DNA of 64,000 bases from a bacterium. GTDB taxonomy: Bacteria > Patescibacteriota > Patescibacteriia > UBA10025. The stretch spans positions 467,710 to 531,709 of the forward strand of contig JAKAGM010000001.1 of assembly GCA_021815445.1 (NCBI GenBank). Direction: 5' to 3'. The notes under the pieces are model-generated. The model made no database searches and was not told where the DNA came from. It saw only the letters and a program-made list of their open reading frames with translations. Positions within the stretch are counted from its first letter, which is position 1. Each line of letters opens with the position of its first letter. Of this stretch, positions 7,801-57,114 are shown piece by piece. A program made the position numbers and the translations under genes.

Positions 7801-9295
7801 GAACCAGGGCGAATACAAAGCTGATGGCGTAGTCGTCACCGACACGTTGCCCGCGCACCTGACATTCGTCTCGGCGAGTCCCGCCGCGGCCACACAGGTC
7901 GGCAACGCGCTGACATGGAATCTCGGCACGCTCGCTGTCGGTGCTTCACAGACAATAACCGTCACTGCGAAAATAGACGCGCTGATGCCGTTCGGGAACA
8001 CTGATCTGAAAAACACGGCTACCGCCTCGACAACGACTGTCGAACCGGACACTTCAAATAACACCGCGACTGATACTACAACTGTCCCGGCATCGCCAAC
8101 AATCTCCCTGACTAAGACAGCTTCAGCGCCTCAGGTCAATCCGGGCGACACTATCACCTTTACCATGACATGGGGCGTGGATAGCAACAGCCAGGCGACC
8201 AACGTGGTACTCACCGACCCCGTTCCGGCGAATACGACCTTCGTCTCTGCGAATAATGGCGGTGTCTACAACTCCGGAACTAACACAGTTACCTGGACAC
8301 TCGGGACCAAGAATCCCGGCGATACAGGCGCTGTCCAGCTCGTAGTCAAGGCGTTTACGCCTCTTGCAAGCGGCACGGTGATTAAAAACGTCGCCACACT
8401 TGGCTCGACACAGAACAACCCTGTCCAGGCGCAGGCGTCTGTCACTATTGTTTCAGGGCCTATCCTGAAAATTTCCAAAGTTGCCGACAAACAGCAGGTA
8501 AACCCGGGCTCGAAAGTGACATACACTGTCGTCATCACCAACACGGGCAACGACCAGGCGACAAATGCCACGCTCACCGATACCCTGCCGGCCGGCTTCA
8601 CGTTCGCTGACTCTGGCCTGTCGACCAAGACGTTCGTCCTCGGCAATCTCCTCGCAGGCACGAGCGTTACCACAACCTACGATGTCAACGTCGCATCAGA
8701 CGCGACTGCCGGCATCCACGAGAACACGGCAACGACAAAGGCGGACAATCATCCTGCCGTCACGGCCAAAGCTCCCGTCGAGGTCATCATCCCGCAGATC
8801 CTCGCGGAGCAGGCGTTCCCTAAACTGGTGATTACAAAAAAGGTGGACAAAGCGTTTGCCAATCCCGGCAACACCGTTACCTATACTGTCGTAGTGGAAA
8901 ATACGGGAAATGCCGTCGCGATAAACGTCCAGGTGCAGGATCTCCTGCCCGCGGGTTTCACCTTTACCGACAAGACGACCACAAAAGTGTTTAAAGTCGG
9001 AGACCTGGCGCCCGGCCAGAAGCATGATGTGAAATATGACGTCGTCATCAGCAAAGACATGCCGGCAGGCACCTACAAGAACTTCGCAGTCGCGTGGGCT
9101 GACAACCATCCGAATGTCACAGTGTCCGCCCCGCTTGAAGTGAGAGTTCCCAAGGTGCTCGGCGCCGAGATTCTTCCGACCACCGGCAACAACCTGCTTG
9201 AAATAGTCTTCATAGCATTCGCAGCGCTCTTCGTATTCTTTATCGGCTGGGGCCTCTGGGTAACCCGCCGGGACGAGAACGAGGAACGGGCATAA
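1835..9295 (+). CDS. Giant LPXTG-anchored surface adhesin of 2486 aa. Architecture: N-terminal signal/TM, a vWA domain with a MIDAS motif, about 14 SdrD-B/CnaB-type domains, five DUF11 repeats, and a C-terminal LPTTG sorting signal.
   Basis: vWA MIDAS motif DTSGS within DIGLIVDTSGSIDS. Repeated units MKFNDxNGNGVKDxGExGxxGWTI ... TDVNGNYxFxNLTxGTYxVSE ... GWTQT resemble SdrD B-like/CnaB folds. DUF11-like repeats (TYTIVVKNQGEYKADGVVVTDTLPAHLTFVSASP). C-terminus has LPTTGNN, a hydrophobic stretch, then RRDENEERA. Confidence 0.9.
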   Translation: MTINLLPRKTWRQRILKGVHVFALLALVANMSMASVFISPTTTLAKQADTAEQVPQSATVNTDAATTAAVSTPVPNPALGQSCGLDIGLIVDTSGSIDSTEMLQMKTAMTNFSNAFVGTPTVFSLTSFADDSVLKRAFSRTPTQMAGDIGTDIPSYGNGWTNWDSGLARSFATFDPRAAKSNLIVIATDGSPNHWGYPTNTGITDYTQALSYAVTRANTIKTAGTRIVVVGIGNDTSDPATLAEKLQKMEDISGTNVATTPGAITTSTDVIKVTDFTGIGSALSAFASQLCGGKILVQKQFDTNGDGQVDLDGSQPNDALTGWTFDVNGTPTNPAPLTTTNTGALSFDVQNGTYSVSETNIKSGTRLASATCVKGTQAVGTFDPATKTVNGLVMGTDGTINCNFVNSTDTGTLKVVKHVVGGTATAANWQLHVKQNGSEVAGSPQAGSEAGTSYTLPVGTYNVSETGGSANYTQSFSDNCPGGTITIANGQTAACTLTNTRDTARVVFQKVLVGNSQNQVPADWTFTVNDQQVNGNGGSTVLQTNQDYTVTESSSYSNLYSLTNATGACHLNAQGQIIVNTAANGGTCTVTNTRNTGSLVVHKDVVNPDGGAVSDTHQFTVTLDGGNSKTIAEGTDATYLNLPTGTYTVAENSDADYTFVSYSSDTDVNTAGAQVVVTKDGTTQLTVTNKQKKATVTINKDVRDYLGNDVSDSTSFQVTWSGSPMTISEGSPAVFQVNPGTYTFTETANSLYTTQTASYQVTVTSNGSASRTFVNWQKSGTITGMKFNDMNGNGVKDSGDNGLQNWEIYIDSNGNGSWDSAEPKVVTDVNGNYTFTNLTPGTYKVREIQKNGWTQTYPSNNLNNVTLSVGQTVSNQNFGNFQLGAITGMKFNDLNGNGVKDAGEPGIAGWTINITSPVNTNTTTDVNGNYIFPNLTAGTYAVSETHQTGWTQTAPAGGTYSVPITSGTAAADKNFGNFQNISVRVCKYVDTNGDGNIANDPLYTGQGGWAMTLNTATTQNTVEGCTTFSNLGPGAYTLSEGAKSGWVKTYPVGANYQFNAVSGQNQDYKFGNFQTATVSGYKYNDMNGDGNLADGAPLQNWEIKATKGAAVKTATTDVNGFYQFSFSPSENGQWIISETLKADWTQTAPNGGTYTVNVASGTNEVNKNFGNFHNASVTVCKYVDVNGDGNIVGDPLYTAAGGWPVRFHGITQNTVDGCTTFTGITPGSYTVDELNLSGWTRTMPTGPSYTYTAVSGDHTTYNFANFQLGSISGMKFNDLNGNGTKDIGEPGLAGWTISISGPASANTVTDANGNYSFANLTAGTYTVSETQQGGWTQTAPAGNTYSVAITSGTAATGKNFGNFQKISVRVCKYVDVNGDGNIANDPLYTGQGGWAMTLNTATTQNTVEGCTTFSNLGPGAYTVSEGAKTGWIKTYPTAANYAFNAVSGQNQTFAFGNYQTATVSGYKFEDTNGNGVRDNGELGLPNWHITATKGASVKDVTTDANGFYQFSFAPNETGSWTVGEVNQAGWTQTAPVSATYAVAVNSGTAEINKNFGNFKNFNVYVCKYVDGNGDGSVAYDSFYNGEGGWPIVLNDVTHYTTNGCAEFTDLGPGSYTLNEGSKVGWIQTNPQGGYEFNGASGFDPEYIFANFQLGSVSGHKFEDMNGNGKFDLGTDLPKSDVTIKLWHDGEVVATDVTDENGAYSFTGLKAGDYTVSENPLAGWIQTYPALPGTYAFTISSGTVLTDYDFGNFKQTSISGMKFNDVNGNGVKDQGENGLAGWTIKLFALNDGQYVSQSQTVTDDAGNYSFNALTPGTYSLSETNQDGWTQTYPAAPGSYTGIELTSGIPFVGKDFGNFKLGKISGYKFDNTGSKLDNWQVCLSGGSIDNGVDKDFGSHCVVTGSGEWPTGYYEFSGLLAGTYSVKETAQDGWTAVTPASGEYTGIAVTSQFDKSYDFTNRRIYPDLTISKTDGLTTANPGQTITYTIVVKNQGEYKADGVVVTDTLPAHLTFVSASPAAATQVGNALTWNLGTLAVGASQTITVTAKIDALMPFGNTDLKNTATASTTTVEPDTSNNTATDTTTVPASPTISLTKTASAPQVNPGDTITFTMTWGVDSNSQATNVVLTDPVPANTTFVSANNGGVYNSGTNTVTWTLGTKNPGDTGAVQLVVKAFTPLASGTVIKNVATLGSTQNNPVQAQASVTIVSGPILKISKVADKQQVNPGSKVTYTVVITNTGNDQATNATLTDTLPAGFTFADSGLSTKTFVLGNLLAGTSVTTTYDVNVASDATAGIHENTATTKADNHPAVTAKAPVEVIIPQILAEQAFPKLVITKKVDKAFANPGNTVTYTVVVENTGNAVAINVQVQDLLPAGFTFTDKTTTKVFKVGDLAPGQKHDVKYDVVISKDMPAGTYKNFAVAWADNHPNVTVSAPLEVRVPKVLGAEILPTTGNNLLEIVFIAFAALFVFFIGWGLWVTRRDENEERA
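4481..6790 (+). repeat. Intragenic tandem duplication of two 1155-bp units (385 aa each, four CnaB/SdrD-B-like domains per unit). The units contain 133-bp cores that are near-identical at the DNA level (4813-4945 vs 5968-6100, one mismatch).
   Basis: Direct comparison of the two units. Protein segments LGAITGMKFNDLNGNGVKDAGEPGIAGWTI... and LGSISGMKFNDLNGNGTKDIGEPGLAGWTI... are collinear, and the ISVRVCKYVD...GPGAYT block is identical at the nucleotide level except for one C/T. Confidence 0.85.
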
Positions 9296-9615: not shown

Positions 9616-12081
9616 ATGAGTAAATTCATACTCATGGCGCAAAGACGCCTCAATAAGACCTGGTCAATGACCATAATCGGGGGGATAGTTTTGAGTGTGC
9701 TCATCGGGGGTGTGCTCATCGCAAAGGCCGACATCGGTACTATAACAATTAATGATCCTGTCTTAGTTTCCGGAACCACGTACAAAGTAACCGGCATGTG
9801 GAGCCCACAAGGTAACCAATGCTGGACAAGTGGGGGTGACGGCACTTTCCACTACAAAGTTTATGTTTTCGATGATAAAAACGGCAACGGAAATTACGAT
9901 AGCGGTGAGAAGATTTCTCAAGTTAATCCTGCCGCTTGTAATGAAGATTACACATCAAGCGTTTCAAGCTCAAATCGTGATTTAGGCGGTAATTGGCCCG
10001 CAATCGCATCTTCTAGCAATGGGGGTACTCCCCAACCAGATGCGGCTTTTACCTTGGGCAACGGTAGCCACACAATTTGCGCAGCACTGATACACGTTCA
10101 AGATAACGGCCATGATCGGGTAGATGGTGTGACCTGTGCCAGTAAGCCGATTGTCATAGCCTATTGCGGCGACGGGATCAAGAACAATGGCGAACAATGT
10201 GACGGCACCGACGGAGTTAGTCCACATCAAACCTGTAATGCTGATTGTCATCTTGTCGATGTCCCCTACTGCGGCGACGGCATCGTGAACCAGACGAGTG
10301 AACAGTGTGATCAGGGCCCTGATGGCGGTTCAACATGCACCACTAAGTGCACATGGAAGCCAGCCACTATTACACTTAATAAAGAGGTAAATAACCAGTT
10401 CGGCGGAGATGCTGCTCCAAGTGATTTTACTTTGAAGATTGACGGAGAAGCGGTATCCCAGGGAGTAGCTCATGAAGTTACCCTTGATACGCCTCATTCA
10501 ATTGATGAAGGAAGTCTCACTGACACTGGCTATGCGTTTGACTCGATTAAGGGCGGTGAACAGTGTCCCTCGGAGCTTGGCGGGACTGTAACTCTCTCTG
10601 CTGGAGAGAATATCACCTGCACGATCACAAACCACGACGTCCAGCCGAAACTGACAGTGGTTAAAGAGGTAGTCGGCGGCCCAAAGACTGTTGCTGACTT
10701 TCCGCTGTTTGTTGGAGATATCTCAGTCACGAGCGGCGTCCAGAACGGCTTTAATGCCGGATTTTATCACGTGACCGAAACGAATCAACCCGGGTATACC
10801 GCAGCATTCTCATGCAATGATGACGGGGAAGGAACGGTCAGCCTGAATCTGGGTGATGTCAAAACCTGCACTATCACCAACACATACACCCCGTTTTGCG
10901 GCGACAAGATTGTTGATAAAAGGGAGCAATGCGACGGAAACACCCAAGTTTGCACTACGGCAGACGGCTACAAGGGTACTCAAACCTGCAACATGCCACC
11001 GCCTCCAAATAGTGTAACAGCTGCAGTTGCTACGAATTACTGCACGTGGAATCCTTGTGTGACTACTGAGAAATGCGGTGATGGTATCAAAAACGGCCTT
11101 GAACAGTGCGACGGCACAGACGGAGTCGCTTCCAACCAGACCTGCACCGCGCAGTGCACGCTCAAGGACAATCCTACGCCACTTACGCCGAACCCTGTTA
11201 TCACGCTTGCAAAGATTGACTCTCCGGACCCTGTTGCCGCCGGAGCGAATATCACTTACACCTTGAATTGGACGGTGAGCAACGCGTCGGCGACCAACGT
11301 TGTCCTGACCGACGTGATTCCCGCGAACACGACTTTCGTGTCCGCTTCGACGCCCAGCGCATATGATTCCGGCACGAACAAGGTGACATGGAGCATGGGC
11401 ACGGTTGCCACAGGCAACTACGTGACCACGCTCGTCGTGAAAGTCGCCTCCCCTCTCGCCAACGGCACTAAGATTGATAACACGGCGACCATCGACAGCA
11501 CAGAGACCGACCCGGTGAATGCCGCAGCCCAGACGACGGTCTCGACAGCCCCGATACTGAGCGTCGAAAAGATCGTTGACGTGACGACAGCGAATCCCGG
11601 CCAGACAGTGAACTACACGGTGAAAGTGACCAACAGCGGCACTGACACGGCAAACAACGTCAAACTGACAGATGTGCTCCCGGCCGGCTTTACCGCCAAG
11701 GATGACGGCACAGGGACTGTCATTCACAGCTTCGGCAACATCGCCGCCGGCGAAACAGTGTCCACTTCATTCGCCGTAGTCATCGGCAGCACAGTGACAG
11801 CAGGGACCTATACGAACGTCGTGCAGGTCGTCGGCGACAATCACAGCCAGGTGGCCGCCCAGATAGCGCTCAATGTAGTTGTGCCGCAAGTGCTTGGCGA
11901 AAAGACTGAAGTGACACCCGCCCCGAAACCGAAAGTTTTGGGAGCAACAACGCTCCCGGTCACAGGATCGAACCTGTGGGTATGGGTCATCGCTTCGATG
12001 CTCGTCGCTTCTCTTGTCGGCGTCGGCGTCTACTTTAAGCCGAGAGAGCTTTCCGCAGAGGACAAGAACACTTCCAAATAA
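9616..12081 (+). CDS. LPXTG-anchored surface protein of 821 aa with Cys-rich CGDG...EQCDG repeats (Myxococcus-type cysteine-rich repeat-like) and DUF11 repeats; C-terminal LPVTG.
   Basis: N-terminal TM segment IIGGIVLSVLIGGVLIA. Repeats YCGDGIKNNGEQCDGTDG, YCGDGIVNQTSEQCDQGPDG, FCGDKIVDKREQCDGN, KCGDGIKNGLEQCDGTDG. DUF11-like block TYTLNWTVSNASATNVVLTDVIPANTTFVSAS. C-terminus LPVTGSN, hydrophobic stretch, KPRELSAEDKNTSK. Confidence 0.85.
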   Translation: MSKFILMAQRRLNKTWSMTIIGGIVLSVLIGGVLIAKADIGTITINDPVLVSGTTYKVTGMWSPQGNQCWTSGGDGTFHYKVYVFDDKNGNGNYDSGEKISQVNPAACNEDYTSSVSSSNRDLGGNWPAIASSSNGGTPQPDAAFTLGNGSHTICAALIHVQDNGHDRVDGVTCASKPIVIAYCGDGIKNNGEQCDGTDGVSPHQTCNADCHLVDVPYCGDGIVNQTSEQCDQGPDGGSTCTTKCTWKPATITLNKEVNNQFGGDAAPSDFTLKIDGEAVSQGVAHEVTLDTPHSIDEGSLTDTGYAFDSIKGGEQCPSELGGTVTLSAGENITCTITNHDVQPKLTVVKEVVGGPKTVADFPLFVGDISVTSGVQNGFNAGFYHVTETNQPGYTAAFSCNDDGEGTVSLNLGDVKTCTITNTYTPFCGDKIVDKREQCDGNTQVCTTADGYKGTQTCNMPPPPNSVTAAVATNYCTWNPCVTTEKCGDGIKNGLEQCDGTDGVASNQTCTAQCTLKDNPTPLTPNPVITLAKIDSPDPVAAGANITYTLNWTVSNASATNVVLTDVIPANTTFVSASTPSAYDSGTNKVTWSMGTVATGNYVTTLVVKVASPLANGTKIDNTATIDSTETDPVNAAAQTTVSTAPILSVEKIVDVTTANPGQTVNYTVKVTNSGTDTANNVKLTDVLPAGFTAKDDGTGTVIHSFGNIAAGETVSTSFAVVIGSTVTAGTYTNVVQVVGDNHSQVAAQIALNVVVPQVLGEKTEVTPAPKPKVLGATTLPVTGSNLWVWVIASMLVASLVGVGVYFKPRELSAEDKNTSK

Positions 12082-41909: not shown

Positions 41910-44900
41910 CTATAATGACGAGCTATCAGGAAGGGTACAAACGGTTTTTAAACCTACTTTTCTGCATATCGGAGTGACGCTCGCCACACAACTGCCATCA
42001 GCTGTACATGAAGTTCCCGCCAGGCAGGTAAATCCGCATTTTCGGCAGTCAGAAGTTAATTTACCGTTGTTACACACCTGCTTGGAGACATTGCATTGCC
42101 CAAAGACAGTCTGGTCAGCGCACTGAGCATAGACCCCGCTATGGCCGTTGTCATATTGATATCGTGGCCACGAAGCGTTTCGAGCTGTGCGTGGAAGATC
42201 AAAAGCGAGTATCTTAACCAACGGAGCCGGCTCGTAGCTGTTGCCATACACAACCATATCGAGGTGGCCGTCGGAGTTAATGTCTTTCAAGGCAACTTCA
42301 AGGTATGAGCCGAGATTGCCAATATATATCGGGTAACCGGCGATTTCTTTTCCCTGCGCGCTGAACGCGTGCACGGAGGAACCGTCAACTGCCACAATTT
42401 CTGGCGCCCCGTCGCCATTGACATCACCGATAACGGGGGAATGGATCCCCCAGAGTTCAAGCGGCCAGCCAGCCAGCATATGCCCCGCGGCATCCCATGC
42501 ATTCAGATGATCCCGTGAATCAGCAACTATTTCGGGAGTTCCATCTGCGTTGATATCCCCGATGGCTATGTTTCCTCCACTGAGCCCGAGGGGTACGGTG
42601 GCGATCAGTTCACCCGTATAACGATAGATAGATAACGTGTTCCATCCCGTGATAATAATTTCTAAAGCGCCGTCTCCATTGATATCTGCCAGCACAAGCC
42701 CCGTGGTATTTCTTGTATCCCCATCGGCAACAACCCAGCTTTTCTTCATTGTTCCGTCATTGCCAATAATAAAAATCTCGCGCTGATAGGTCGAACCGGT
42801 AGCATCTACCGCCACAACCTCAGGTTTACCATCGTTATCAACATCGCCCACAGCAATTGTCGTATCCAGGAGATATGCCGTGTCGGGCAGGCTCACGGGC
42901 CAGTGGGCGAGACTGCTGCCGTCTCCATGCCATGCTTCGATTTGCTTGGGGTATTTATCGACTGAAATGACCTCCGGTTTGCCGTCTAGATCCAGGTCAG
43001 CAATTACGGGTCCCTTGACGCTCGACTCAATCAATTTTGGCCATCCATTGGTAATCTCAGCCCCGGTGTAATCGACGACGTGGATACCTTTTGTACCTTC
43101 AAGTGTTCCAAAAACAATTTCTTTATAGCCATCTCCGTTGAGGTCCCCGGTGACCATTCCGTATGGGTTCCTTAACGCTTGAAACGGCTGGGCGGTGGCG
43201 GGAGTTCCGTCATCGTTCCAAACTTGAAGGTTTTGATAAGAACCGAGAATAATTTCCGCTTTTCCATCCTTATCAATATCGTCCGGATTAATGTGAGATT
43301 CTGATCTGTCGTAAAATCTGACAGGCCAACCAGCTACCAACCCAGTAAGCACCTCCCGTGAGTCAGAAACTTCTCTGCCTGCAGAGTCGATGACGGTGAG
43401 TTTAACGAAATAGTTGCCCATCAGCGCTGATGTATCCCACGTAGCCAGAACCCCTAGGGTCACGGGCGTCTGGCTTTCGGTAATGACTGTCCAGTTTGAC
43501 GGATCATTTTCCGAAGCATACGAAACTCGATATCGAGAGAAATTTTTCCCGTACGCCGAGCCTGAAATAGTTTGATTTCCCCGGGTGTAATACCCTGTCT
43601 GTGCAGGATTTTCAATGTGAGAAACAAGAGGATCGCTAACCATGAGCGCCCTGTAGGCATCTACTTTTCCGCTCCCGGTATACTTGTCCCATCCTGTACC
43701 ATACTGCACATCCCAGCTTTTGCACACACCAGCGTTAGAGGTGCATGTCTTGGTTCCCGAATCAACGTAGCATGTCGAGTCCATAGCGCACTCGTATATG
43801 TCGTATGTGCCGCACGGCGTATACCAGTAGCACGTCGGCTGGAGGGAGCACGAGCTCTTTGAAACCACCGTACCGCAGTCATATGAGGCGTGAGAGAGGT
43901 CCGTGGCGGATTCCTCCAGAGCCGCTCGCACTTGTTCGGGGGTAAACTCAGGATGCCTGGCCTTCACGAGCCCCGCAACGCCTGATACAAACGGTGACGC
44001 CATCGAGGTCCCTCGCGCCCTATAGTACCCCCCGCCCACGATGCTGAGTCCGTCACGGTACATATCCAAGCCGGAGGCCTGGAGCGACAAAATGTTCCGC
44101 GAGACAAATGGGGATCGTTCTTGGTCTCCGTTCATGGTCACTACCCCGCTGTCTCCACCGGGAGCAGTGACATCAATTTTTCCCCAATTAGAAAAAGATG
44201 ATTTCACATCCTGATGATCGAGCGCGCCCACGGTGATGACGTTCTGGAACTGCGCAGGAGCAAACGCTTGTGCGGGCGCGTTGCTGTTGCCGGCGGCTGC
44301 AACGAGAACTACGCCAAGGCTGTGTACATAAGCAACGACATCCTCTAAGAATGGGTACTCGGCGCTTGGACTGTACCCGCCCCAACTCATATTGATGATG
44401 TTCGCACCGTTGTTGGCAGCGTACACGAGGGTATCCGCCAGCTCAGAAGTGTATCCGGATCCTTGGGCATTCAGTCCCTTCACCGACATTATGGTGCAGT
44501 GAGGACAGACTCCGGCGATTCCTTTTCCATTATTAAATTCAGCGGCTATGATCCCGGCGACGTGTGTGCCATGGCCGAAGTTGTCTTTCGGATCGGGGCC
44601 AGGATTTTTGGAGACTGCACACGAATATGGTGCAAATGCGGCGCAGGTTGTGAAATCCCATCCCATGACGTCATCCACGTAGCCATTGTGGTCATCGTCG
44701 ATACCATTGCCCGCGATCTCGCCGGTATTCCGCCAGATATTATTCCGGATATCCTCGTGGGTATAATCCACTCCGGTATCAGACACAGCAATTATGACTT
44801 TATTTTTTGAGTAATCAATCGGCGCAGGACCGTCCCCATTCACTGTATTGGCCAAATATACAACATCGAGGACATCAGTAACGCCATCCCCGTTAACGTC

Positions 44901-45785
44901 AGTAACCTCCACAGGATCAGGCGCAGGAGCATTTTGAAAGGTGTATTTAATAAGGAGGTTTACGTCGTCCTGCGTGATTTTGCCGTCTTTATTCAAATCG
45001 CCCCGTTTGGCATAGATGACATCCCATGCCCGCGGGGCACTAATGGTTTTGACTGACCACTGATCGTCATACAGCTGCCCCCAACTGCCCGATGATGCAA
45101 AGTAGGGATCATTAGGAGTCAGGGTTGCAGAAAGTATGTAATTGGGCTGCGCATATTCTACGTTGCCGCTTGCCAATAACTTTTTCTGAATTTGAAAAAC
45201 ATCGATAGCACTTTGATCTCCGATATCAGAGGTGGAGAAATGCAGCGTGGTCCATCTGTTGAGGCCAACATCAGTTATCTTTTGGGATGCCCCCTGTTGG
45301 AGGGGAGTTTTTTGCAGTGCGTTCGTGGATAAAGCGTTCTTTGCACTCTGAAGGGTCACATGAAGAAGTTTCTTCTGAGAGGTTTGAGTCTGCGCGGTAG
45401 ACGGAGTTTTCTGCTGGGCATTCGGATCGACCGGCTGGACACGCATCCCTGTCGAGGGGTCTACTAGGATTTCTTGCGGTTCTGACAAAGCTCCGCTGAT
45501 AGCTTTTTGACGGTCTGCATCGGTAATACCGGCCTTAAATTTCACGAGAAGTTCGGCCGGAGTGTACTTGGATTCCTCTGCCGTCGGCAAAGCCGCAGCA
45601 GCGAGTGACAGCGCTGGTGAAGCATTAGTCGCATTTGAGCCGATACCCTGCACAAAATTCACCACCATTCCGATTCCCAGGAACGTGGCGCCCAGCATGA
45701 TGACTGCTATGTTAGCCTTAATAATCATGTCGGCTATTTTTCTGCCCTGATCTTCACCGGCGTAGTGCAACCTTATGCCATTCAT
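41910..45785 (-). CDS. Large secreted S8 subtilisin-like serine protease (1291 aa) with a dockerin-type Ca-binding repeat pair, FG-GAP repeats and a Cys-rich C-terminal module.
   Basis: Catalytic triad blocks AVSDTGVDYTHEDI (Asp), HGTHVAGIIAA (His), GTSMASPFVSGVAGL (Ser). Dockerin-like DLNKDGKITQDDVNLL / DVNGDGVTDVLDVVYL. FG-GAP-like GDVDNDGKPEVV, GDINADGTPEIV, GDVNGDGAPEIV. N-terminal TM. C-terminal Cys-rich ~70 aa. Confidence 0.9.
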   Translation of the reverse strand: MNGIRLHYAGEDQGRKIADMIIKANIAVIMLGATFLGIGMVVNFVQGIGSNATNASPALSLAAAALPTAEESKYTPAELLVKFKAGITDADRQKAISGALSEPQEILVDPSTGMRVQPVDPNAQQKTPSTAQTQTSQKKLLHVTLQSAKNALSTNALQKTPLQQGASQKITDVGLNRWTTLHFSTSDIGDQSAIDVFQIQKKLLASGNVEYAQPNYILSATLTPNDPYFASSGSWGQLYDDQWSVKTISAPRAWDVIYAKRGDLNKDGKITQDDVNLLIKYTFQNAPAPDPVEVTDVNGDGVTDVLDVVYLANTVNGDGPAPIDYSKNKVIIAVSDTGVDYTHEDIRNNIWRNTGEIAGNGIDDDHNGYVDDVMGWDFTTCAAFAPYSCAVSKNPGPDPKDNFGHGTHVAGIIAAEFNNGKGIAGVCPHCTIMSVKGLNAQGSGYTSELADTLVYAANNGANIINMSWGGYSPSAEYPFLEDVVAYVHSLGVVLVAAAGNSNAPAQAFAPAQFQNVITVGALDHQDVKSSFSNWGKIDVTAPGGDSGVVTMNGDQERSPFVSRNILSLQASGLDMYRDGLSIVGGGYYRARGTSMASPFVSGVAGLVKARHPEFTPEQVRAALEESATDLSHASYDCGTVVSKSSCSLQPTCYWYTPCGTYDIYECAMDSTCYVDSGTKTCTSNAGVCKSWDVQYGTGWDKYTGSGKVDAYRALMVSDPLVSHIENPAQTGYYTRGNQTISGSAYGKNFSRYRVSYASENDPSNWTVITESQTPVTLGVLATWDTSALMGNYFVKLTVIDSAGREVSDSREVLTGLVAGWPVRFYDRSESHINPDDIDKDGKAEIILGSYQNLQVWNDDGTPATAQPFQALRNPYGMVTGDLNGDGYKEIVFGTLEGTKGIHVVDYTGAEITNGWPKLIESSVKGPVIADLDLDGKPEVISVDKYPKQIEAWHGDGSSLAHWPVSLPDTAYLLDTTIAVGDVDNDGKPEVVAVDATGSTYQREIFIIGNDGTMKKSWVVADGDTRNTTGLVLADINGDGALEIIITGWNTLSIYRYTGELIATVPLGLSGGNIAIGDINADGTPEIVADSRDHLNAWDAAGHMLAGWPLELWGIHSPVIGDVNGDGAPEIVAVDGSSVHAFSAQGKEIAGYPIYIGNLGSYLEVALKDINSDGHLDMVVYGNSYEPAPLVKILAFDLPRTARNASWPRYQYDNGHSGVYAQCADQTVFGQCNVSKQVCNNGKLTSDCRKCGFTCLAGTSCTADGSCVASVTPICRKVGLKTVCTLPDSSSL

Positions 45786-49964: not shown

Positions 49965-50120
49965 TCACGATGAACCCGCGAACATGGAGGATAGGAGTAC
50001 GGTGACAATTGATGCAAGTGATACAAGCGTACTTATCAGGAGAAGGGCAGTCGCGATCTTGTGATGGACATCAACCTTCTCAATAACTTCGACGTCCTGC
50101 GTTTGTCGTTGAAAAGCCAT
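49965..50120 (-). CDS. Unlisted small ORF (51 aa) encoding a C-terminally anchored (tail-anchored-like) membrane peptide.
   Basis: Translating the minus strand by eye gives MAFQRQTQDVEVIEKVDVHHKIATALLLISTLVSLASIVTVLLSSMFAGSS. It is below the 60-aa cutoff of the ORF track. Confidence 0.3.
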   Translation of the reverse strand: MAFQRQTQDVEVIEKVDVHHKIATALLLISTLVSLASIVTVLLSSMFAGSS

Positions 50121-50270: not shown

Positions 50271-53200
50271 CTAAAATTGAGGGCAGGATCCGGGCGGCTT
50301 ATTATGTGCTACTATCCCGCTGGCAATATAGGTGTTGTCCGGCGAAACCTCGAGATTGTACACCTTAACTGTTTCATCGACCTCCTGGATTGAGTAAATG
50401 GGTACAGGCCGACTCTGATCATCGGTGAGTGTATCCCCTACCTTGAGCCTGCCGACTTCAACCCATTCGCCGCGAGAATACATCGGGTGTGTTTTTGTGA
50501 CCTTGATTTTCCCATTGATAACAAGATAATTATTTGTCTCGTGTACATACACTTGCGTCACGTTATTATCAACCAACGCGCCAGTTTTAACATCATAGGC
50601 CTTGACCCCATCGCCAACTTTTAAACCCTCTATTGGCCTACTGGAGCCGTCGTTCATGAGGATTGGGGTGCCGGCCAGGAAACTTGAACGGCAAGTTCTG
50701 GGTTGGTTTTGCACGCACGATGTACCGTTGCAATAATATCCCGAGGCACAGGGAGTGCCGCAGGCATTGCCGCATTGGTCGTAGCCGCAGGTTTTGCCGG
50801 CGCACGAACAGGCCTGGCAGCTTCCATTGCCAGTGCAATAGGTTCCCGTCCCACAGCCGCAAACACTGCAATTATTTATCAGGGTTAAATTAGTCTGGCA
50901 GTATAACGGCTTGGTCGCGGAGCAAGATCCGACTAATGTGCCGTCACTGCAATTATTGAAAGTACCGGTCCGATTAATATTCTGGCGGAAAGTGGGCCAT
51001 TGGAGAGCCGCCGTCGATGAAGTTGCAACTGTATAAACCATCAGGTAATTTGTGTCAGAGCCGACCACGATCTCCGGTTTCCCATCCCCATTAACATCGG
51101 CAACAGCCGGACTCGAGTAAACAGCGCCAGGCGCATTATACGGCCATGGCGATACCGGAGTGCCGTCTCCCTGCCAGGCGTAGACCTTGCCATCCATAGA
51201 GCCCACAATAACTTCCGGCGATCCGTTGCCATCCAGATCCGCCAGGGCGGGAGAAGAATATACAATACTACCGGTGGTTATCGGCCATTTACTTGAAACC
51301 GGAGTGCCGTCAGCGTGCCAGGCGTAGACTTTATCATTACCGACGACAATTTCCAGGCCGGCATGCGCCGGATCAAGCTCACCGATGGCGGGTGAAGAAT
51401 CCCCTGATCCTCCGGTTGATTGCGGCCAGCCGGCGACCGGAGTGCCGTCAGCGTGCCAGGCGTATGTTTTGAAGCCCGAGCTCATGACCACTTCCAGCTT
51501 TCCGTCGCCGTCTATATCGGCCACCGCCGGCGAGGAGTAAAAAGAAGCAAACCACCCCGGGGCATCTTCGACATGTTTGGGCAGCCAGCCGGCGGTCTGA
51601 TCCCCGATGTACGGAGAACCATCGGCATGCCAGACATAAACATTTCCCTCTACGGTACCGACAATAACCTCAAGGCCGGGCGTTGACGGGTCCAGATCGG
51701 CAAGTACCGGAGTTGACCTTACCCAGCCCAAAGTAGATTTCGGCCAGTTAGGCACAGTTTGACCGTTTGCTGTCCAGGCATACACCTTGGAATCATACGA
51801 GCCGACAACCACCTCTTTAGTGCCATCTTTGTTGATATCTGCAACAGCCGGTGAGGATAAAACTTTATCACCAGTGGCAATCCCGTTTGTCCATCCAGCA
51901 ACAGCGCTTCCGTCAGAGTGCCAGGCGTAAACTTTATTATTAGCCGATCCAACTATTACTTCGGGCCCCGGAAAGCCAGGATCAATATCCGCTACTGCCG
52001 GCGATGAATAATTACCCGTCACCGGGCCAGTTACTTTTGGCCAACCAATCAGTGTGGCGCCGGCGGAATTCCACGCGTAAATATTTCCTGCATAGTCGCT
52101 GGCAACTACCTCCAGGGAACCCCCGGGAATAAGGTCAGCCACGGCTGGCCCGGAACGTACTGGGCCACCCATAAGCTGTGGCCAGCCGGTGAGGTACGGA
52201 GGCTGGACTATAACTGAAACGATACCCGTACTCGTAACATTGCCGACATAATCGTATGCTTTTGCCTGGAAAGTATGTGAGGTGGGAACGAGATCATTAA
52301 AGGAGGCTACGGCCGAATACGGGCTTGTCGTATCAGTCTCGCGCAGCACAGAGTCCGTATAAAACTCAACTTTCCAAACGCCAACAGTGTCAGACGCGTC
52401 CGCGGACACCGTGACCGGATTGGGAATAGTAACGCCGTTAGTCGGTGAGGTCAGAGTCACGGAAGGGGACGTCGGATCCGTATTTGTAACGGTAAAATTA
52501 ATGTTTGCTGAATCGCCGCTATTATTTGGTTTTGAATAAGGCGTGCCAGCCAGATCGTATGCCCTGGCAAAAATCGTATTTGCGCCATTAGGAATGTGTG
52601 TGGTATCAAGCGTAGCTTGATAGGGCGAGGTCGAGTCGGAGGCAAAAGGCGTAGTCGCGCCATTGAGATAAAATTCAACCTTTTCAATGCCCGAAGCATC
52701 CGAAGCATTAGCCGACACCGTGATATTGCCGGAAACGTTGGCGCCGGCTGTCGGCGCTGTGACAGAAGCAGTCGGTGGCGTAAAATCAGTCTTGCCAATC
52801 GTAATACTTACCGTCAACGCCGAGGATGTTTTTGAGACAGCTCTTATTTGCGTTCCGGTCGCCGGATCAGTGAAGGTTGTTCCGACTGGCAAAGCATTAT
52901 TTGCCAAACTACCCGGCGGAGTCGGATCAATGAGTTCCGAATAATTTAAATCCCCGACAAAGCCAACGTGTAGGAGCGCTCCAGTAAAAACTTCAGTACT
53001 GACACCGCCAATTCCGGTATCTTGTCCGATAGGTTGGCGAAATTCCACGTAGATATAATCTTGCGCTGAACGGGGAATTTTGATCGCTTTTAAATTTGAA
53101 GTGGTAGTAGACATAGGATAAAGGACGTAACTGCCGTTCGTAACCACAGTCTGAAGATTGGTGGCGCTCAACCAACCTAAATTTTCCTTATGCATGGCGT

Positions 53201-54521
53201 TGAAATGCCCGCCCTGGGTAGCGATACCCATGATGTCATAATAGTCGCCGTATTCAACGCGAAAACAGTCGGAATCAGCCACTGAAACCTTCCCGCAATC
53301 GTAAAATTGAGCATGATTATTCCCTAAGCCATGACCGAGCTCGTGCCCGACGACATACTGATCAAAAAATTCCGGTTTAACGCTTGAAACTGACATCTCA
53401 ACATCTCCATCCGGCGAATTGACCGTTACTTTACCTAACGTTGATATCCCCTCCCAAGTGGCACAGCCCCCGCCTCCAAAAGGGGCGGCAAGTACAAGAC
53501 GGCCATAATCATTATAGTTAACTTCAGCGTTAGCCGCGTTTAATAATGCGTTGATCATCGTCGAACTGCCGCAAGTTTGATCGACAGGAATGTTATACCA
53601 GCCGCGAACATCGGCTGCCTGGCCGGCATCAAGTACGCTCTTTATGTCAATCTGCGAATAGGAATTTTCCTGGTAATAGGCTTTTACCTGATTCATAACT
53701 GCTTGCGCTTGCGTGACAGTCAAAGTAGGGGCCGGGGTATTTTGAAAATTGAACAACAGAACCAGTGTTTTTTGATCGCCGAGCACTGGTGTCGCCGTTG
53801 TGACCTGGGATGTTTGATAACCCGTACTCACATTCTGCAGGTCTGTAAGCGCCGCGAATTTGACAGAACCGTCAAACAGCAAATTGCCGTCAATTTGATA
53901 GCCCTTCACTTCTAACTGCGATCCGGGCTTCACCGCCTGCAACGAAGCCTTTGCAGAATGAAGTATAATCTGCTGACCATCCGCCGTTCGCAACGAATAC
54001 TCGTTTTTACTTGTCTTATCGGTGTAATCTACTATCTGAACTTCCAGCTTCCCTCCCACAGTTTTAACGGTTTCCACGCAATCACTGGCGCGCGCTGTAA
54101 TAGCAGTGCGGACTTTATCAGTCAACACCATATTGAGCGCCTGGTCGGGATCCGCGGCCATTGTTTCCATGAAATGCTGCTTTCTTGAGACCAGGGCATT
54201 GTGAAGCGACGCCGATGCCGCCTGCTGAATATCAATCTTGCTAACATCCGAGCTTTCTAATTGGAAGGCGGCCAGGTCATCTTTTGAAAGCGTAACCTGG
54301 TGTACATCCGCTATGGAAGGCAGCGTAACCGGAGAACAGGCCACAGCCGACAATTTTGTTGTCGTCGATAATTGGGTAGTCGTTAACGCCGCCGCAAAAC
54401 CAACCGCCGCCGCTATGCCGGCAAACATCATGACGGCCAAACTGACCTTTTCATAAATATTCACCTCAGTTCTTGTCTCGATGTCTATTCTGTTATTTGG
54501 CATACGTTTTTTATTAGGCAT
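50271..54521 (-). CDS. Giant secreted multidomain protein (1416 aa). Architecture: N-terminal TM/signal anchor, Ig-like regions, a metzincin-type zinc metalloprotease domain, FG-GAP/VCBS-like repeats, a Cys-rich (EGF/keratin-like) module, and a C-terminal Hint (bacterial intein-like) domain.
   Basis: Metzincin motif VVGHELGHGLGNNH with Met-turn YDIMG (~53.3 kb). Repeats KVYAWHADGTP...SSPAVADLD occur about 8 times. Cys-rich CSVCGCGTGTYCTGNGSCQACSCAGKTCGYDQCGNACGTPCASGYYC. Hint blocks SSFLAGTPIL (N-terminal nucleophile position), KVTKTHPMY (TxxH) and VYNLEVSPDNTYIASGIVAHN (C-terminal HN). Confidence 0.9.
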   Translation of the reverse strand: MPNKKRMPNNRIDIETRTEVNIYEKVSLAVMMFAGIAAAVGFAAALTTTQLSTTTKLSAVACSPVTLPSIADVHQVTLSKDDLAAFQLESSDVSKIDIQQAASASLHNALVSRKQHFMETMAADPDQALNMVLTDKVRTAITARASDCVETVKTVGGKLEVQIVDYTDKTSKNEYSLRTADGQQIILHSAKASLQAVKPGSQLEVKGYQIDGNLLFDGSVKFAALTDLQNVSTGYQTSQVTTATPVLGDQKTLVLLFNFQNTPAPTLTVTQAQAVMNQVKAYYQENSYSQIDIKSVLDAGQAADVRGWYNIPVDQTCGSSTMINALLNAANAEVNYNDYGRLVLAAPFGGGGCATWEGISTLGKVTVNSPDGDVEMSVSSVKPEFFDQYVVGHELGHGLGNNHAQFYDCGKVSVADSDCFRVEYGDYYDIMGIATQGGHFNAMHKENLGWLSATNLQTVVTNGSYVLYPMSTTTSNLKAIKIPRSAQDYIYVEFRQPIGQDTGIGGVSTEVFTGALLHVGFVGDLNYSELIDPTPPGSLANNALPVGTTFTDPATGTQIRAVSKTSSALTVSITIGKTDFTPPTASVTAPTAGANVSGNITVSANASDASGIEKVEFYLNGATTPFASDSTSPYQATLDTTHIPNGANTIFARAYDLAGTPYSKPNNSGDSANINFTVTNTDPTSPSVTLTSPTNGVTIPNPVTVSADASDTVGVWKVEFYTDSVLRETDTTSPYSAVASFNDLVPTSHTFQAKAYDYVGNVTSTGIVSVIVQPPYLTGWPQLMGGPVRSGPAVADLIPGGSLEVVASDYAGNIYAWNSAGATLIGWPKVTGPVTGNYSSPAVADIDPGFPGPEVIVGSANNKVYAWHSDGSAVAGWTNGIATGDKVLSSPAVADINKDGTKEVVVGSYDSKVYAWTANGQTVPNWPKSTLGWVRSTPVLADLDPSTPGLEVIVGTVEGNVYVWHADGSPYIGDQTAGWLPKHVEDAPGWFASFYSSPAVADIDGDGKLEVVMSSGFKTYAWHADGTPVAGWPQSTGGSGDSSPAIGELDPAHAGLEIVVGNDKVYAWHADGTPVSSKWPITTGSIVYSSPALADLDGNGSPEVIVGSMDGKVYAWQGDGTPVSPWPYNAPGAVYSSPAVADVNGDGKPEIVVGSDTNYLMVYTVATSSTAALQWPTFRQNINRTGTFNNCSDGTLVGSCSATKPLYCQTNLTLINNCSVCGCGTGTYCTGNGSCQACSCAGKTCGYDQCGNACGTPCASGYYCNGTSCVQNQPRTCRSSFLAGTPILMNDGSSRPIEGLKVGDGVKAYDVKTGALVDNNVTQVYVHETNNYLVINGKIKVTKTHPMYSRGEWVEVGRLKVGDTLTDDQSRPVPIYSIQEVDETVKVYNLEVSPDNTYIASGIVAHNKPPGSCPQF

Positions 54522-54573: not shown

Positions 54574-57114
54574 CTAGAGGGTCCGTTCCCCCACCGCCTG
54601 CGCTTTGGCCATCGTGGCGGGCTTGCCGAGCTGGGAACGCTCCATAATTTCAGCCTCGACAATCTTTTTATCTCTCCCATACCGGAGCCGCGAATACTCG
54701 GTAATCGCTTTTGCCACCTGCGCGTCCCCGTCCTGAGGAGGATATGTCTGCATCGTAAATGGCTTTGAGACGGTATTATCGATGAGGAGCTTGATATTGG
54801 CGTTGTACATGTCGACGTTCATCACGTCGTATTCGTCAAAGACCGGCGCGAACTCTTTCGCCATAGTCTCGGCGTCTTCGACGCCGACGCGGAACGCTAC
54901 GCGCGTCCCCACATTGCCGAATACGGCATCGCGGATGGTGATATCGTCGCCCTGGACCAACTGCGAAATATACTGGTGAGCGATGGTAAGATTAAGCCGG
55001 TACTTTCGCGCCTCGGAGAGGATGGTTTTAATCGAGTCAGTGACGAAATTTTGGAACTCGTCGACATAGAGATAAAAATCCTTGCGCTGTGCCTGGGGCA
55101 GTGACGCGCGTCGCAATGAGGCCATCTGAAGCTTCGAAACGATAATCAGGCCGAGAAGGTTGGAGTTCACTTCTCCCGTCGTGCCTTTCGAAAGGTTGAC
55201 GAGCAGTATTTTCTGTTTGTCCATAATTTCTCCCACATCGAACCCCGACCTGGGCTGGCCGATGATGTTCCTCATCATGGCGTTCTCCACGAACCTGCCG
55301 ACTTTAGAGATGAGGTACCCCAGCATCTCCGATTTGTGAAAATCGGACGTCTTGGCCATCTCCTGTTCCCAAAAAGCCCGTACGACGGGATCGCTCACTT
55401 TTGAAACTTTGTATTTCTGGAATGCGGGGTCGGTAAACATGCGCGGAATCTCCGCTATAGTGCCGGGCGACTCCGTATCGGCCATCAGCGTCAGCATGGC
55501 GTTTCGCATATTGTGCTCGAACATCGGCCCGATCATTTCGGGAGGAAAAAGCTTGTAAAAAATCGCTATCATTTCCTGGATGGCAAAATCACACTCTTCA
55601 GGTGTTTTTGCCTCTAACATGTTGAGGCCGACAGGGCGGTCTGCGTCCGAGGGGTTAAAGATGATTACGTCCTCTGCCCGTTGTTGCGGCACTTGCGCGA
55701 GAACTGCATTGACGAGGTCCCCATGGGGATCCACGACGCACACTCCTTCGCCGTTGACGATGTCCTGCACAATCATGTTTTCGAGGAGCACAGACTTTCC
55801 CACGCCCGACATACCGAGTACGTAGACATGGCGCCGCCTGTCTTCCCGCTTGATCCGTATGACGCTTTCGATGCCGCGGTACATATTATGGCCCAGCACC
55901 AGCCCCTCGCGAGGGATATTGGAGGGCGCGGGAGCTTTTCGCGCCGAGAGCCAGAGGATATTCGGCGTCTCAGTGGTGGGCAGGGGAAAGTGAAAGACGC
56001 TCGCAATCTCTTCGGTATTGAGGATGAGTTTCTTTCCCTCGTCGAACGCCCGATAAATAAAATTATGTATCAGCCCGTCCTGGCGCATCGGATCTTTGCG
56101 AGAAAAACCGTTCCCGTATTCATAGAGCGTGTACTGGTTAAAAGCATCCATGATGTTCTTGAGGAACTGTTGGGCGCGCTCCGGCGTGCTCGAGGAAGTA
56201 AGGATGCGGATATTAACGTCGAGGCCGGCTTTGCTCGTCTTTTCCTCGAGGCGCTTCACGATGTTTTCTTCCATAGGCGAAAGCCGATACATGACGTCCT
56301 GGTCTTTTTTTTCTTTTTTCGGGAAAAAGGTCCGAAAAAGGGTCCTAAAAATCCCGCTGATCCCGTGGGCGCCGAGCGCTTCGTTGAGCTTCTTCCCCTG
56401 CTGCATCTCCCTGGCGACACGGGCGCCCCAGGTGTGCCAGCTCGCTTTTGCGGATCGCGCGACAATCTGGATCGCCACGCCGTCATGCTCCCCTATTTTA
56501 CTGAGCGCGTTCGTGACGGCATTGAGCGGATCGACATCAAGCTCGCGGTACGACCTGATGGGAAAAATATACTGTTTGCGAAATACAAGCGTCGTGCCCG
56601 CGATGAAGCTTTGCGGGGTGAACATGTTATAATCGGGCACTTCATCAATCTGCGCTCGCGGATACTGGGCATGGATTTGCTGTTCCATGAACTGCCTGAG
56701 ATATTCGGGGACGACGACGTAAAATGCAATCACGCCCGCCATCGCCACTATCTCGACGGCAAAATGATCCGTACGGCCGCCCAAAAGCGAGCTTGCGCCG
56801 CGTTGTGCATGCATGCCTCCGAGCGCGTTCCACCACGCTTCAGCGACCACCAGCTGTTCTTCAATCGTCTTCCGTTGATCCTGCTCCGCCGCTTCCTGCT
56901 CCTTCGGCACGGTAACGAGGAGAATCACATGGCGGAGCGCCGAGGAAACTGAACGTTTTTTTTTGATGGTAAAACGGAGTACGATGCTTGCGGCTAATCC
57001 GATGACTACGAGTCCCGCTATGACGATAAATACATAAAAAAGCGGCGAGGAGGAAAATCCCTCCCACATTGCCGCGAGCCCTGATGCGAAATCAATATGA
57101 ATGCCGAACCCCAT
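54574..57114 (-). CDS. Membrane-anchored P-loop NTPase of the VirB4/TraC (AAA-like, DUF87) / type IV secretion ATPase superfamily (846 aa).
   Basis: N-terminal TM helices. Walker A RHVYVLGMSGVGKSVLLENM in the middle of the protein, as in VirB4. Walker B and motif C LYVDEFQNFV...EARKYRLNLTIAHQYISQL...TRVAFRVGVEDAETMAKEF match the VirB4/VirD4 RK...Q pattern. Confidence 0.8.
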   Translation of the reverse strand: MGFGIHIDFASGLAAMWEGFSSSPLFYVFIVIAGLVVIGLAASIVLRFTIKKKRSVSSALRHVILLVTVPKEQEAAEQDQRKTIEEQLVVAEAWWNALGGMHAQRGASSLLGGRTDHFAVEIVAMAGVIAFYVVVPEYLRQFMEQQIHAQYPRAQIDEVPDYNMFTPQSFIAGTTLVFRKQYIFPIRSYRELDVDPLNAVTNALSKIGEHDGVAIQIVARSAKASWHTWGARVAREMQQGKKLNEALGAHGISGIFRTLFRTFFPKKEKKDQDVMYRLSPMEENIVKRLEEKTSKAGLDVNIRILTSSSTPERAQQFLKNIMDAFNQYTLYEYGNGFSRKDPMRQDGLIHNFIYRAFDEGKKLILNTEEIASVFHFPLPTTETPNILWLSARKAPAPSNIPREGLVLGHNMYRGIESVIRIKREDRRRHVYVLGMSGVGKSVLLENMIVQDIVNGEGVCVVDPHGDLVNAVLAQVPQQRAEDVIIFNPSDADRPVGLNMLEAKTPEECDFAIQEMIAIFYKLFPPEMIGPMFEHNMRNAMLTLMADTESPGTIAEIPRMFTDPAFQKYKVSKVSDPVVRAFWEQEMAKTSDFHKSEMLGYLISKVGRFVENAMMRNIIGQPRSGFDVGEIMDKQKILLVNLSKGTTGEVNSNLLGLIIVSKLQMASLRRASLPQAQRKDFYLYVDEFQNFVTDSIKTILSEARKYRLNLTIAHQYISQLVQGDDITIRDAVFGNVGTRVAFRVGVEDAETMAKEFAPVFDEYDVMNVDMYNANIKLLIDNTVSKPFTMQTYPPQDGDAQVAKAITEYSRLRYGRDKKIVEAEIMERSQLGKPATMAKAQAVGERTL

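Follow-up and report, generated by a model that had tools for sequence, protein, structure and literature searches.

What does a Hint domain do at the extreme C-terminus of an exported protease, where almost no sequence follows it? The question is raised by a gene in a 64,000-nucleotide stretch of contig JAKAGM010000001.1 (assembly GCA_021815445.1, positions 467,710 to 531,709 of the forward strand) from a bacterium of the Patescibacteriota lineage UBA10025; this whole stretch is referred to as the window, and its coordinates are used throughout. Based on the list of open reading frames (ORFs) and the translation, the gene (50271..54521, reverse strand) encodes an exported multidomain metalloprotease of 1416 amino acids (aa) with a C-terminal Hint domain and a nine-residue tail, KPPGSCPQF. 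Hint domains are known to carry out splicing in inteins, toxin release in PT-HINT proteins and the lipidation of a signal protein in Hedgehog, and terminal Hints fit none of these jobs. From the sequence, we propose with a probability of about 0.5 that the C-terminal 137 residues are a catalytically competent Hint module, similar to the A-type bacterial intein-like (BIL) domains, and that this module cuts itself out of the protease after export. Autoprocessing by this Hint appears likely.

Profile matches, alignment and structure prediction place the Hint domain at residues 1280-1407 (50301..50684, reverse strand), followed by the tail (50274..50300) and the stop codon of the protease gene (50271-50273). 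The original prediction had claimed a Hint of the BIL or PT-HINT kind at 50274-50714 on the reverse strand, which corresponds to residues 1270-1416 of the ORF 50271-54521, and the strings that it had named (SSFLAGTPIL, TKTHP and VYNLEVSPDNTYIASGIVAHN, together with the tail) are all found in the translation. The claimed kind is upheld by Pfam PT-HINT, which matched the whole protein with 57.0 bits (E 3e-15) and its C-terminal 209 aa with 61.2 bits (E 1.7e-16), the cut-off being 27.7. The profiles Intein_splicing, Vint, Hom_end_hint, Hint_2 and Hint matched less strongly and put position 1 at Ser1280, and the NCBIfam model TIGR01443 (intein_Cterm) gave 18.8-24.1 bits, above its cut-off of 15.6. 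Among solved structures, the Clostridium thermocellum BIL 2LWY is the closest in sequence (E 1.4e-14). An AlphaFold2 model of residues 1252-1416 had a mean predicted local distance difference test (pLDDT) value of 91.3, and its top Foldseek match was the Tetrahymena BIL2 structure 6Y75 (E 1.4e-12). Compared with 2LWY, the model gave a template modelling (TM) score of 0.86 and a root-mean-square deviation of 1.6 Å at 35% identity. There were 60 Protein Data Bank matches at E ≤ 1e-3, and among the matches listed, 50 of 50 were BILs, inteins, Hedgehog or Vint domains. By its profiles, catalytic residues and predicted fold, the region 1280-1407 is confirmed, at the level of sequence and model, as a real member of the HINT superfamily. 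A search of the window for other Hint domains recovered only this one.

Are the residues needed for catalysis retained? In the hidden Markov model alignments, position 1 is Ser1280 (codon AGT, 50682-50684), block B is represented by Thr1342 (50496-50498) and His1345 (50487-50489), and the domain ends with His1406 (50304-50306) and Asn1407 (50301-50303). These positions were compared across 262 near-full-length related domains drawn from the 152 best cluster representatives; an exhaustive homologue search returned 13,928 cluster representatives at E ≤ 1e-3, of which 151 reached E ≤ 1e-30. The column of position 1 holds Cys in 255 domains and Ser in 5, so the reading of Ser at the nucleophile position by the original prediction stands. 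The TxxH and His-Asn motifs are likewise present, in near-invariant columns: Thr in 258/262 and His in 260/262 for block B, His in 261/262 and Asn in 262/262 for the domain end. Asn1389 of the sequence VYN (50355-50357) falls in a column with Asn in 247/262 domains. The domain departs from the family twice, with Ser at position 1 and with Asn1396 (50334-50336) at the block F His position. Because all the near-invariant catalytic positions are retained, the domain does not appear degenerate; the suggestion of a degenerate Hint used as a fold also disagrees with the fact that the C-terminal module is the best conserved part of the protein.

This last point is drawn from the nearest relatives, the proteins of loci L003 (1442 aa) and L004 (1443 aa). 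The nearest genomes with the same C-terminal module are those of Parcubacteria and Patescibacteria, which makes a CPR bacterium the likely source, and a search for closer relatives in metagenome contigs turned up only three weak loci. Identity to L003 and L004 is 52-69% in a Cys-rich stretch preceding the Hint, 58-66% in the Hint and 44-67% in the tail, against 13-36% in the body (pre-protease region, protease, Ig-like and FG-GAP domains) and 30-42% in the short N-terminal segment that includes the membrane-spanning part; no protease domain was detectable in L003. Both relatives retain Ser1 (AGC and AGT codons), a Cys at -3 and one Cys in the KPPG...C tail. Tails seen among the relatives are KPPGACPIPAE, KPPGEFCLPPVR and KPTGCIPNAF. 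Since the C-terminal module is far more alike than the body, it is the conserved part of these proteins, either by selection or by cassette shuffling.

What the family keeps after the domain was analyzed in terminal Hints, defined as those ending no more than 25 aa from the C-terminus; 122 non-identical ones were collected from the sample of the 152 best proteins, from genome loci and from short homologues, and the median length of their tails is 12 aa. Over the 262 domains, the +1 residue is Lys in 183, Ala in 25, Arg in 12, Ser in 8, Thr in 3 and Cys in none. In the 122 terminal Hints, Lys is found at +1 in 86, at +2 in 24 and at +3 in 4, while 8 have none at +1 to +3; thus, 90% have Lys at +1 or +2. 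The rest of these tails contains only 4% Lys, and the tails are 17.6% Pro. Where +1 is Arg, Ala, Gln or another residue, +2 is usually Lys, which indicates that the lysine itself is kept, beyond a mere positive charge. In the protein studied here, Lys1408 occupies +1 (50298-50300) and Cys1413 occupies +6 (50283-50285).

The cysteines flanking the domain show a second regularity. A Cys is present at -5 to -1 in 13 of the 15 terminal Hints whose tails contain an odd number of Cys residues, compared with 14 of the 107 with other tails (Fisher test, p 1.5e-8). When the test was repeated counting each state once per identity cluster, p was 1e-5 at 70% identity and 0.011 at 60%. The support is suggestive, as these sequences come from perhaps six lineages, and its simplest reading would be a disulfide between the last N-extein residues and the tail; the two ends of the Hint fold adjoin each other. 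The Cys three residues upstream, pointed out in the original prediction, is real (Cys1277, codon 50691-50693) and recurrent: the arrangement C-x-S-S is present in all four clearly aligned Ser1 domains and in L003, compared with a Cys at -3 in only 5 of the 255 Cys1 domains. A Ser1 domain within a tandem array (P0032) lacks C-x-S-S. The Ser1 domains with C-x-S-S fall in three lineages, and the nearest relatives of each have Cys1. It looks, from these alignments, as if Ser1 arose in three lineages within the C-x-S-S context as a selected alternative and not by decay. We also considered Cys1277 as the real nucleophile, with a three-residue insertion after it; this is unlikely because block B is positioned for the bond between residues -1 and 1.

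How could such a module act? A-type BILs have an N-terminal nucleophile and a C-terminal His-Asn without a nucleophile at +1 (PMC4031507), and they mostly cleave at one or both junctions (PMC4031507; PMC7664689). They can splice as well, when Asn cyclisation releases an amine that attacks the N-terminal thioester (PMC4031507; PMC7664689). In the Tetrahymena BIL2, the thioester is reportedly resolved by a lysine epsilon-amine, forming an isopeptide (PMC8616854). Additionally, natural and engineered disulfides involving Cys-3, Cys1 or Cys+1 control inteins (PMC3922620).

By its sequence, the Hint domain of this protease has the characters of an A-type BIL. Such domains lie in variable regions of bacterial, typically secreted, proteins, and here the host has an N-terminal signal anchor and the bodies are unrelated across the family; the position of the Hint at the extreme C-terminus is unusual. 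From the residues, architecture and family-wide conservation observed, together with the predicted fold, we infer an activity, an order of steps, a resolving nucleophile and a disulfide as follows. After export, Ser1280 would attack the carbonyl of Ser1279 in an N-to-O acyl shift helped by Thr1342 and His1345, and the 1279-residue body would then be held by an ester. Asn1407, helped by His1406, would cyclise and cut the bond to Lys1408. Canonical transesterification is impossible because +1 is not Cys, Ser or Thr; either the tail lysine or water might resolve the ester instead, the lysine acting through the alpha-amine that the cut sets free, as proposed for A-type BILs, or through its epsilon-amine, as reported for the Tetrahymena BIL2. 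The outcome would be a body re-joined to the nine-residue tail or a body with a free C-terminus, and the 128-residue Hint would be shed either way. A Cys1277-Cys1413 disulfide across both junctions would probably hold the cut-off nonapeptide in position. A Ser as residue 1 would provide a catalytic residue immune to trapping and oxidation outside the cell and would leave Cys1277 and Cys1413 as the only pair near the active site. Processing at the N-terminal side only, as proposed in the original prediction, finds no support in view of the invariant His-Asn and the Lys that follows it in 90% of terminal Hints, since the C-terminal junction is apparently used too; the equal conservation of both junctions, with a Lys beside the C-terminal one, suggests that both reactions are used.

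Several observations weigh against a self-removing module. Ser1 is rare (5/262) and stands here within an otherwise Cys-type context, and the block F His position carries Asn, as in 42/262 domains. The association of Cys residues rests on few independent lineages and loses significance at 55% identity (p 0.10); the upstream Cys of Cys1 members could pair with Cys1 and not with the tail; and the tail was modelled at a pLDDT of about 52. Lastly, self-removal followed by re-ligation of a nine-residue stub offers no obvious benefit. Candidate purposes are control of hydrolase maturation, an aid to export or folding, covalent transfer, peptide release and the persistence of a mobile cassette.

Is there anything beyond the Hint on which it could act? 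That almost nothing follows the Hint had been noted in the original prediction, and this holds: the tail of nine residues is followed by the stop, and a reading of all frames downstream found neither a frame continuing past it nor a toxin-like ORF. With almost nothing after the Hint, toxin release therefore cannot be its role. Within the 370-bp downstream spacer, a putative 51-aa ORF with a hydrophobic C-terminal half is present at 49965-50120 (reverse strand); it is not called as a gene in the source annotation, which has a single call in the spacer, for an ORF of 41 aa on the other strand. The 176-aa product of the next gene downstream matches a DOT1 methyltransferase below threshold (19.6 bits, cut-off 23). 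No toxin- or immunity-like downstream gene was recognised at the locus, immunity proteins being diverse. In a survey of the body domains of 34 terminal-Hint proteins, no delivery domains of the RHS, filamentous haemagglutinin or LXG type were found among the 25 most frequent families listed, nor in this protein.

The proposed release of the body from a C-terminal anchor is not borne out. The Hint and tail contain no hydrophobic or known anchoring element, and a hydrophobic C-terminal segment was found in 0 of 91 related proteins, as counted with a Kyte-Doolittle heuristic, whereas 79 of the 91 have an N-terminal hydrophobic segment. Two other surface proteins of the window, encoded at 1835-9295 and 9616-12081 (forward strand), end in LPTTG or LPVTG, a hydrophobic stretch and basic residues, in this order. 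Such classical sortase sorting signals belong here to proteins of 2486 and 821 aa with SdrD_B, DUF11, SpaA and VWA domains, and no sortase was found among the window ORFs scanned. As other surface proteins of the window end in LPXTG, the Hint is an additional C-terminal device and not the only one of the organism.

Hint-less alleles were sought by homologue search with a query joining the Cys-rich stretch to the tail, with the Hint deleted, and none were found. The window encodes a Hint-less, paralogue-like neighbour, an S8 subtilase of 1291 aa (41910-45785, reverse strand) whose FG-GAP repeats are accompanied by a dockerin-like segment and by the first part of the Cys-rich module described here. 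We rejected this gene as an empty-site allele: it just ends earlier, its C-terminus cannot be aligned to the N-terminal flank joined to the tail, and it is uninformative on splicing.

The terminal architecture extends well beyond this protein. The last Hint lies within 25 residues of the C-terminus in 55 of the 152 best proteins, 42 of which have a single Hint. Terminal Hints are found in Patescibacteria, Omnitrophota (several per genome) and Eisenbacteria, while the related Hints of Thermoplasmata archaea are internal, with tails of 83-1874 aa. The bodies range from S8 subtilases, C25 and C1 peptidases and a glycosidase to proteins of the Ig-like, FG-GAP, beta-helix, pilin-like or adhesin-like kind, without toxin domains among the listed families of the 34 proteins surveyed. 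In databases, the relatives are named "polymorphic toxin-type HINT domain-containing protein" or "intein/homing endonuclease". An all-against-all comparison of the neighbours of 34 terminal-Hint loci found no partner gene shared across the family, the sole exception being an FN3/TolB-like lipoprotein gene downstream in Eisenbacteria.

Several groups of relatives deserve separate mention. Eisenbacteria (L027, L032, L034, L036, L038-L042 and L049) encode small secreted Cys-rich proteins of about 150-400 aa that end in a Hint and a conserved, Cys-rich tail of 13-17 aa, KEDCxx[FY]xQYCxxC, which might be a released peptide; at eight of these loci (L027, L032, L034, L036, L038-L041), a gene for a lipoprotein with FN3 repeats and a TolB-like propeller is located directly downstream. 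Three of the 34 terminal-Hint proteins have a type IV pilin-like motif, that for prokaryotic N-terminal methylation, at their start; a pilin-like protein would then bear a self-cleaving domain at its other end. Proteins of approximately 870-1010 aa from Deltaproteobacteria, Planctomycetota, Nitrospirota and Verrucomicrobiota (L048, L054, L058-L060 and L067-L081; e.g., L058:6001-6429) contain two to five Hints in direct tandem, spaced by K-G or K-G-G-G only (HN|KG|CF..., HN|KGGG|CF...) and followed by Gly-rich regions. At L001:8001-9565, two adjacent paralogous genes encode products of 252 and 253 aa, in each of which about 100 residues separate an N-terminal hydrophobic segment from a Hint with a tail of 8-10 aa; the pair is flanked by cupredoxin-like genes and by a gene for a 1204-aa protein without Pfam matches.

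Could the conserved residues serve something other than self-removal? In a transfer of the Hedgehog or sortase kind, the Ser1280 ester, at the distal end of a protease anchored by its N-terminus, would be attacked by an outside nucleophile, for instance an amine or hydroxyl from the cell's own envelope or from a host cell, so that the body would become covalently attached by its C-terminus and the Hint would be discarded. The domain ends exported proteins, as in Hedgehog, and it does so on many unrelated bodies, several per Omnitrophota genome, like a general C-terminal tag. Among these bodies are C25 and S8 peptidases, and C25 peptidases of Bacteroidota end instead in a sorting domain of the type IX secretion system; moreover, the lineages that carry the module presumably live in attachment to other cells. 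BIL2 can also pass its N-extein to lysines of other proteins (PMC8616854). However, a Hedgehog-type reaction needs the N-terminal junction only, which leaves the invariant His-Asn and its lysine unaccounted for; no sterol-recognition-like region or other adaptor follows the Hint; the 34 loci share no conserved partner gene; and ordinary LPXTG signals serve other surface proteins of the window. Transfer is thus a minority possibility. The rarity of Ser1 and the Asn in block F, taken with the observation that Cys-to-Ser swaps usually impair a given intein, could also mean that these two replacements disabled the Hint, wholly or nearly so, and that it persists at the protein tip in a structural or binding role. 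We consider this unlikely, as Ser1 (AGT or AGC) is kept in three relatives whose Hints are 58-66% identical over bodies of 13-36% identity, all other catalytic residues are retained, Ser1 appears in three lineages in the same C-x-S-S context, and many natural inteins use Ser1.

A benefit to the host need not be assumed if the Hint and its stub are a selfish, intein-like mobile cassette, tolerated at non-essential C-termini and cleanly excising itself. The module is far better conserved than its hosts and stands on unrelated bodies, it is present in multiple copies per genome and in tandem arrays, and insertions of BILs have been described from variable parts of proteins in bacteria (PMC5874633). 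Nevertheless, this explanation seems quite unlikely: the Hint is a 128-aa mini-domain without a homing endonuclease or other mobility gene, a new stop codon could remove an element at the end of a gene without cost, so that its survival in at least 122 proteins argues for a benefit, and its flanks show lineage-specific co-adaptation (Cys pairing, C-x-S-S). Release of the short tail by Asn cyclisation as a signalling or antimicrobial peptide would account for the invariant His-Asn and for tails conserved within clades, such as KPPG..C.P here and that of Eisenbacteria. It would leave position 1 (Cys or Ser) and TxxH unneeded, although they are equally conserved; most tails are poorly conserved and Pro-rich, some being only 1-4 residues long, and a carrier of 1400 residues for a 9-mer is implausible, which makes this reading very unlikely. 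Least credible of all is a polymorphic toxin remnant, that is, a PT-HINT that once preceded a C-terminal toxin domain later lost by truncation. PT-HINT is indeed the best Pfam family and databases name the relatives accordingly, but no frame extends past the stop, with only the 51-aa ORF and then the weak DOT1 match downstream; the short-tail form is stable, widespread and equipped with a conserved lysine (55/152 proteins, 122 non-identical overall); and the bodies are enzymes and adhesin-like proteins without RHS, filamentous-haemagglutinin or toxin domains among the families listed.

How does the proposed self-removing module compare with the known Hint systems? Like the A-type BILs, represented by BIL4 of C. 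thermocellum (2LWY), it has an N-terminal nucleophile, TxxH and His-Asn, lacks a +1 nucleophile and belongs to an exported bacterial host. It differs in its location at the extreme C-terminus, where the nine residues after it make no real C-extein to ligate or release, as well as in having Ser1 within C-x-S-S and a conserved Lys at +1; the C. thermocellum BIL that has been studied has Ala at this position. The BIL2 of the Tetrahymena thermophila BUBL protein (6Y75/6TMM) is the top structural match and resolves its thioester, as reported, with a lysine; the family described here keeps a lysine directly after His-Asn. BIL2, however, is eukaryotic and cytoplasmic and is located between ubiquitin-like domains, whereas this Hint follows the Cys-rich stretch of a secreted protease and has a tail of nine residues; the sequences are only 24-26% identical. 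PT-HINT (PF07591) is defined by a location directly upstream of a toxin domain, which ends the protein and is released by the Hint (PMC3482391); in contrast, no toxin, recognisable immunity gene, RHS or filamentous stalk is present here. As in Hedgehog (Hog) proteins, a secreted protein bears its Hint C-terminally, the folds match (1AT0, E 4.9e-6), and the family consensus at the N-terminal junction, G|CF, resembles the Hedgehog GCF motif. Hedgehog has a sterol-recognition region and no functional C-terminal His-Asn, while here His-Asn and Lys are conserved and no adaptor is present. The fold and the residues of blocks A, B and G are those of class 1 mini-inteins, from which the module differs by the lack of Cys, Ser or Thr at +1, the lack of an endonuclease, its diverse secreted hosts and the absence of a conserved housekeeping insertion site. 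The architecture is not that of polymorphic toxins, canonical inteins or Hedgehog. What is new is the terminal, lysine-tailed Hint architecture and its Ser1 C-x-S-S form; the HINT fold class was already known.

The remainder of the host protein is made up of several domains. Its only membrane segment, read from the translation, is an N-terminal hydrophobic stretch at residues 26-46 (VSLAVMMFAGIAAAVGFAAAL; 54384..54446, reverse strand, as are all the following features of the gene), which may be a signal anchor or a signal peptide. A zinc metalloprotease domain spans residues 268-504 (53010..53720; Pfam Reprolysin_5, 31.9 bits, cut-off 27), with the metzincin motif HELGHGLGNNH at residues 393-403 (53313-53345); the TIGR03296 M6 domain model matched it with 37.5 bits, under the cut-off of that model. 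Two bacterial Ig-like domains follow at residues ~575-780 (52182..52799; Pfam Big_7, 108.6 bits in two stretches), and then an FG-GAP repeat beta-propeller region at residues ~781-1185 (50967..52181; Pfam FG-GAP_3, 96.1 bits; FG-GAP, 63.7 bits). The Cys-rich stretch, residues 1186-1279 (50685..50966, from the translation), ends in PRTC(1277)RS(1279), immediately before the Hint. This stretch (CSDGT..G.C....KP.YCQ.NL.L.NNCS.CGC...) had no Pfam match, and it recurs in further proteins of Patescibacteria, among them L003, L004 and L024, whether or not a Hint comes next. Directly upstream of the protease gene, a VirD4/TraG-like type IV secretion coupling protein of 846 aa is encoded at 54574-57114 (reverse strand).

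The terminal form accounts for about a third of the proteins in an unbiased sample of close relatives. For this architecture, the database label of a polymorphic-toxin component is probably wrong, and a literature search of limited coverage found no link of Hint or intein-like domains with Patescibacteria or Omnitrophota. A wider reading, to which we give only an outside chance, is that terminal Hints are an enzyme-free C-terminal conjugation module of ultra-small, cell-attached bacteria, in which the (thio)ester formed where an exported enzyme or adhesin ends would be passed to an amine, either of the module's own lysine or, in trans, of a group of the cell envelope or of a host cell. If so, proteins would become covalently attached in a bacterial parallel to the lipidation of Hedgehog or to anchoring by sortase, and a junction-spanning disulfide together with an oxidation-proof C-x-S-S would suit the extracellular milieu. 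The lysine that begins the tail, the junction Cys pair and C-x-S-S may also serve ligation tools for use under oxidising conditions. A helper-free and ATP-free conjugation or maturation of this kind, if true, would represent a new route of surface-protein anchoring or maturation in Patescibacteria and Omnitrophota.

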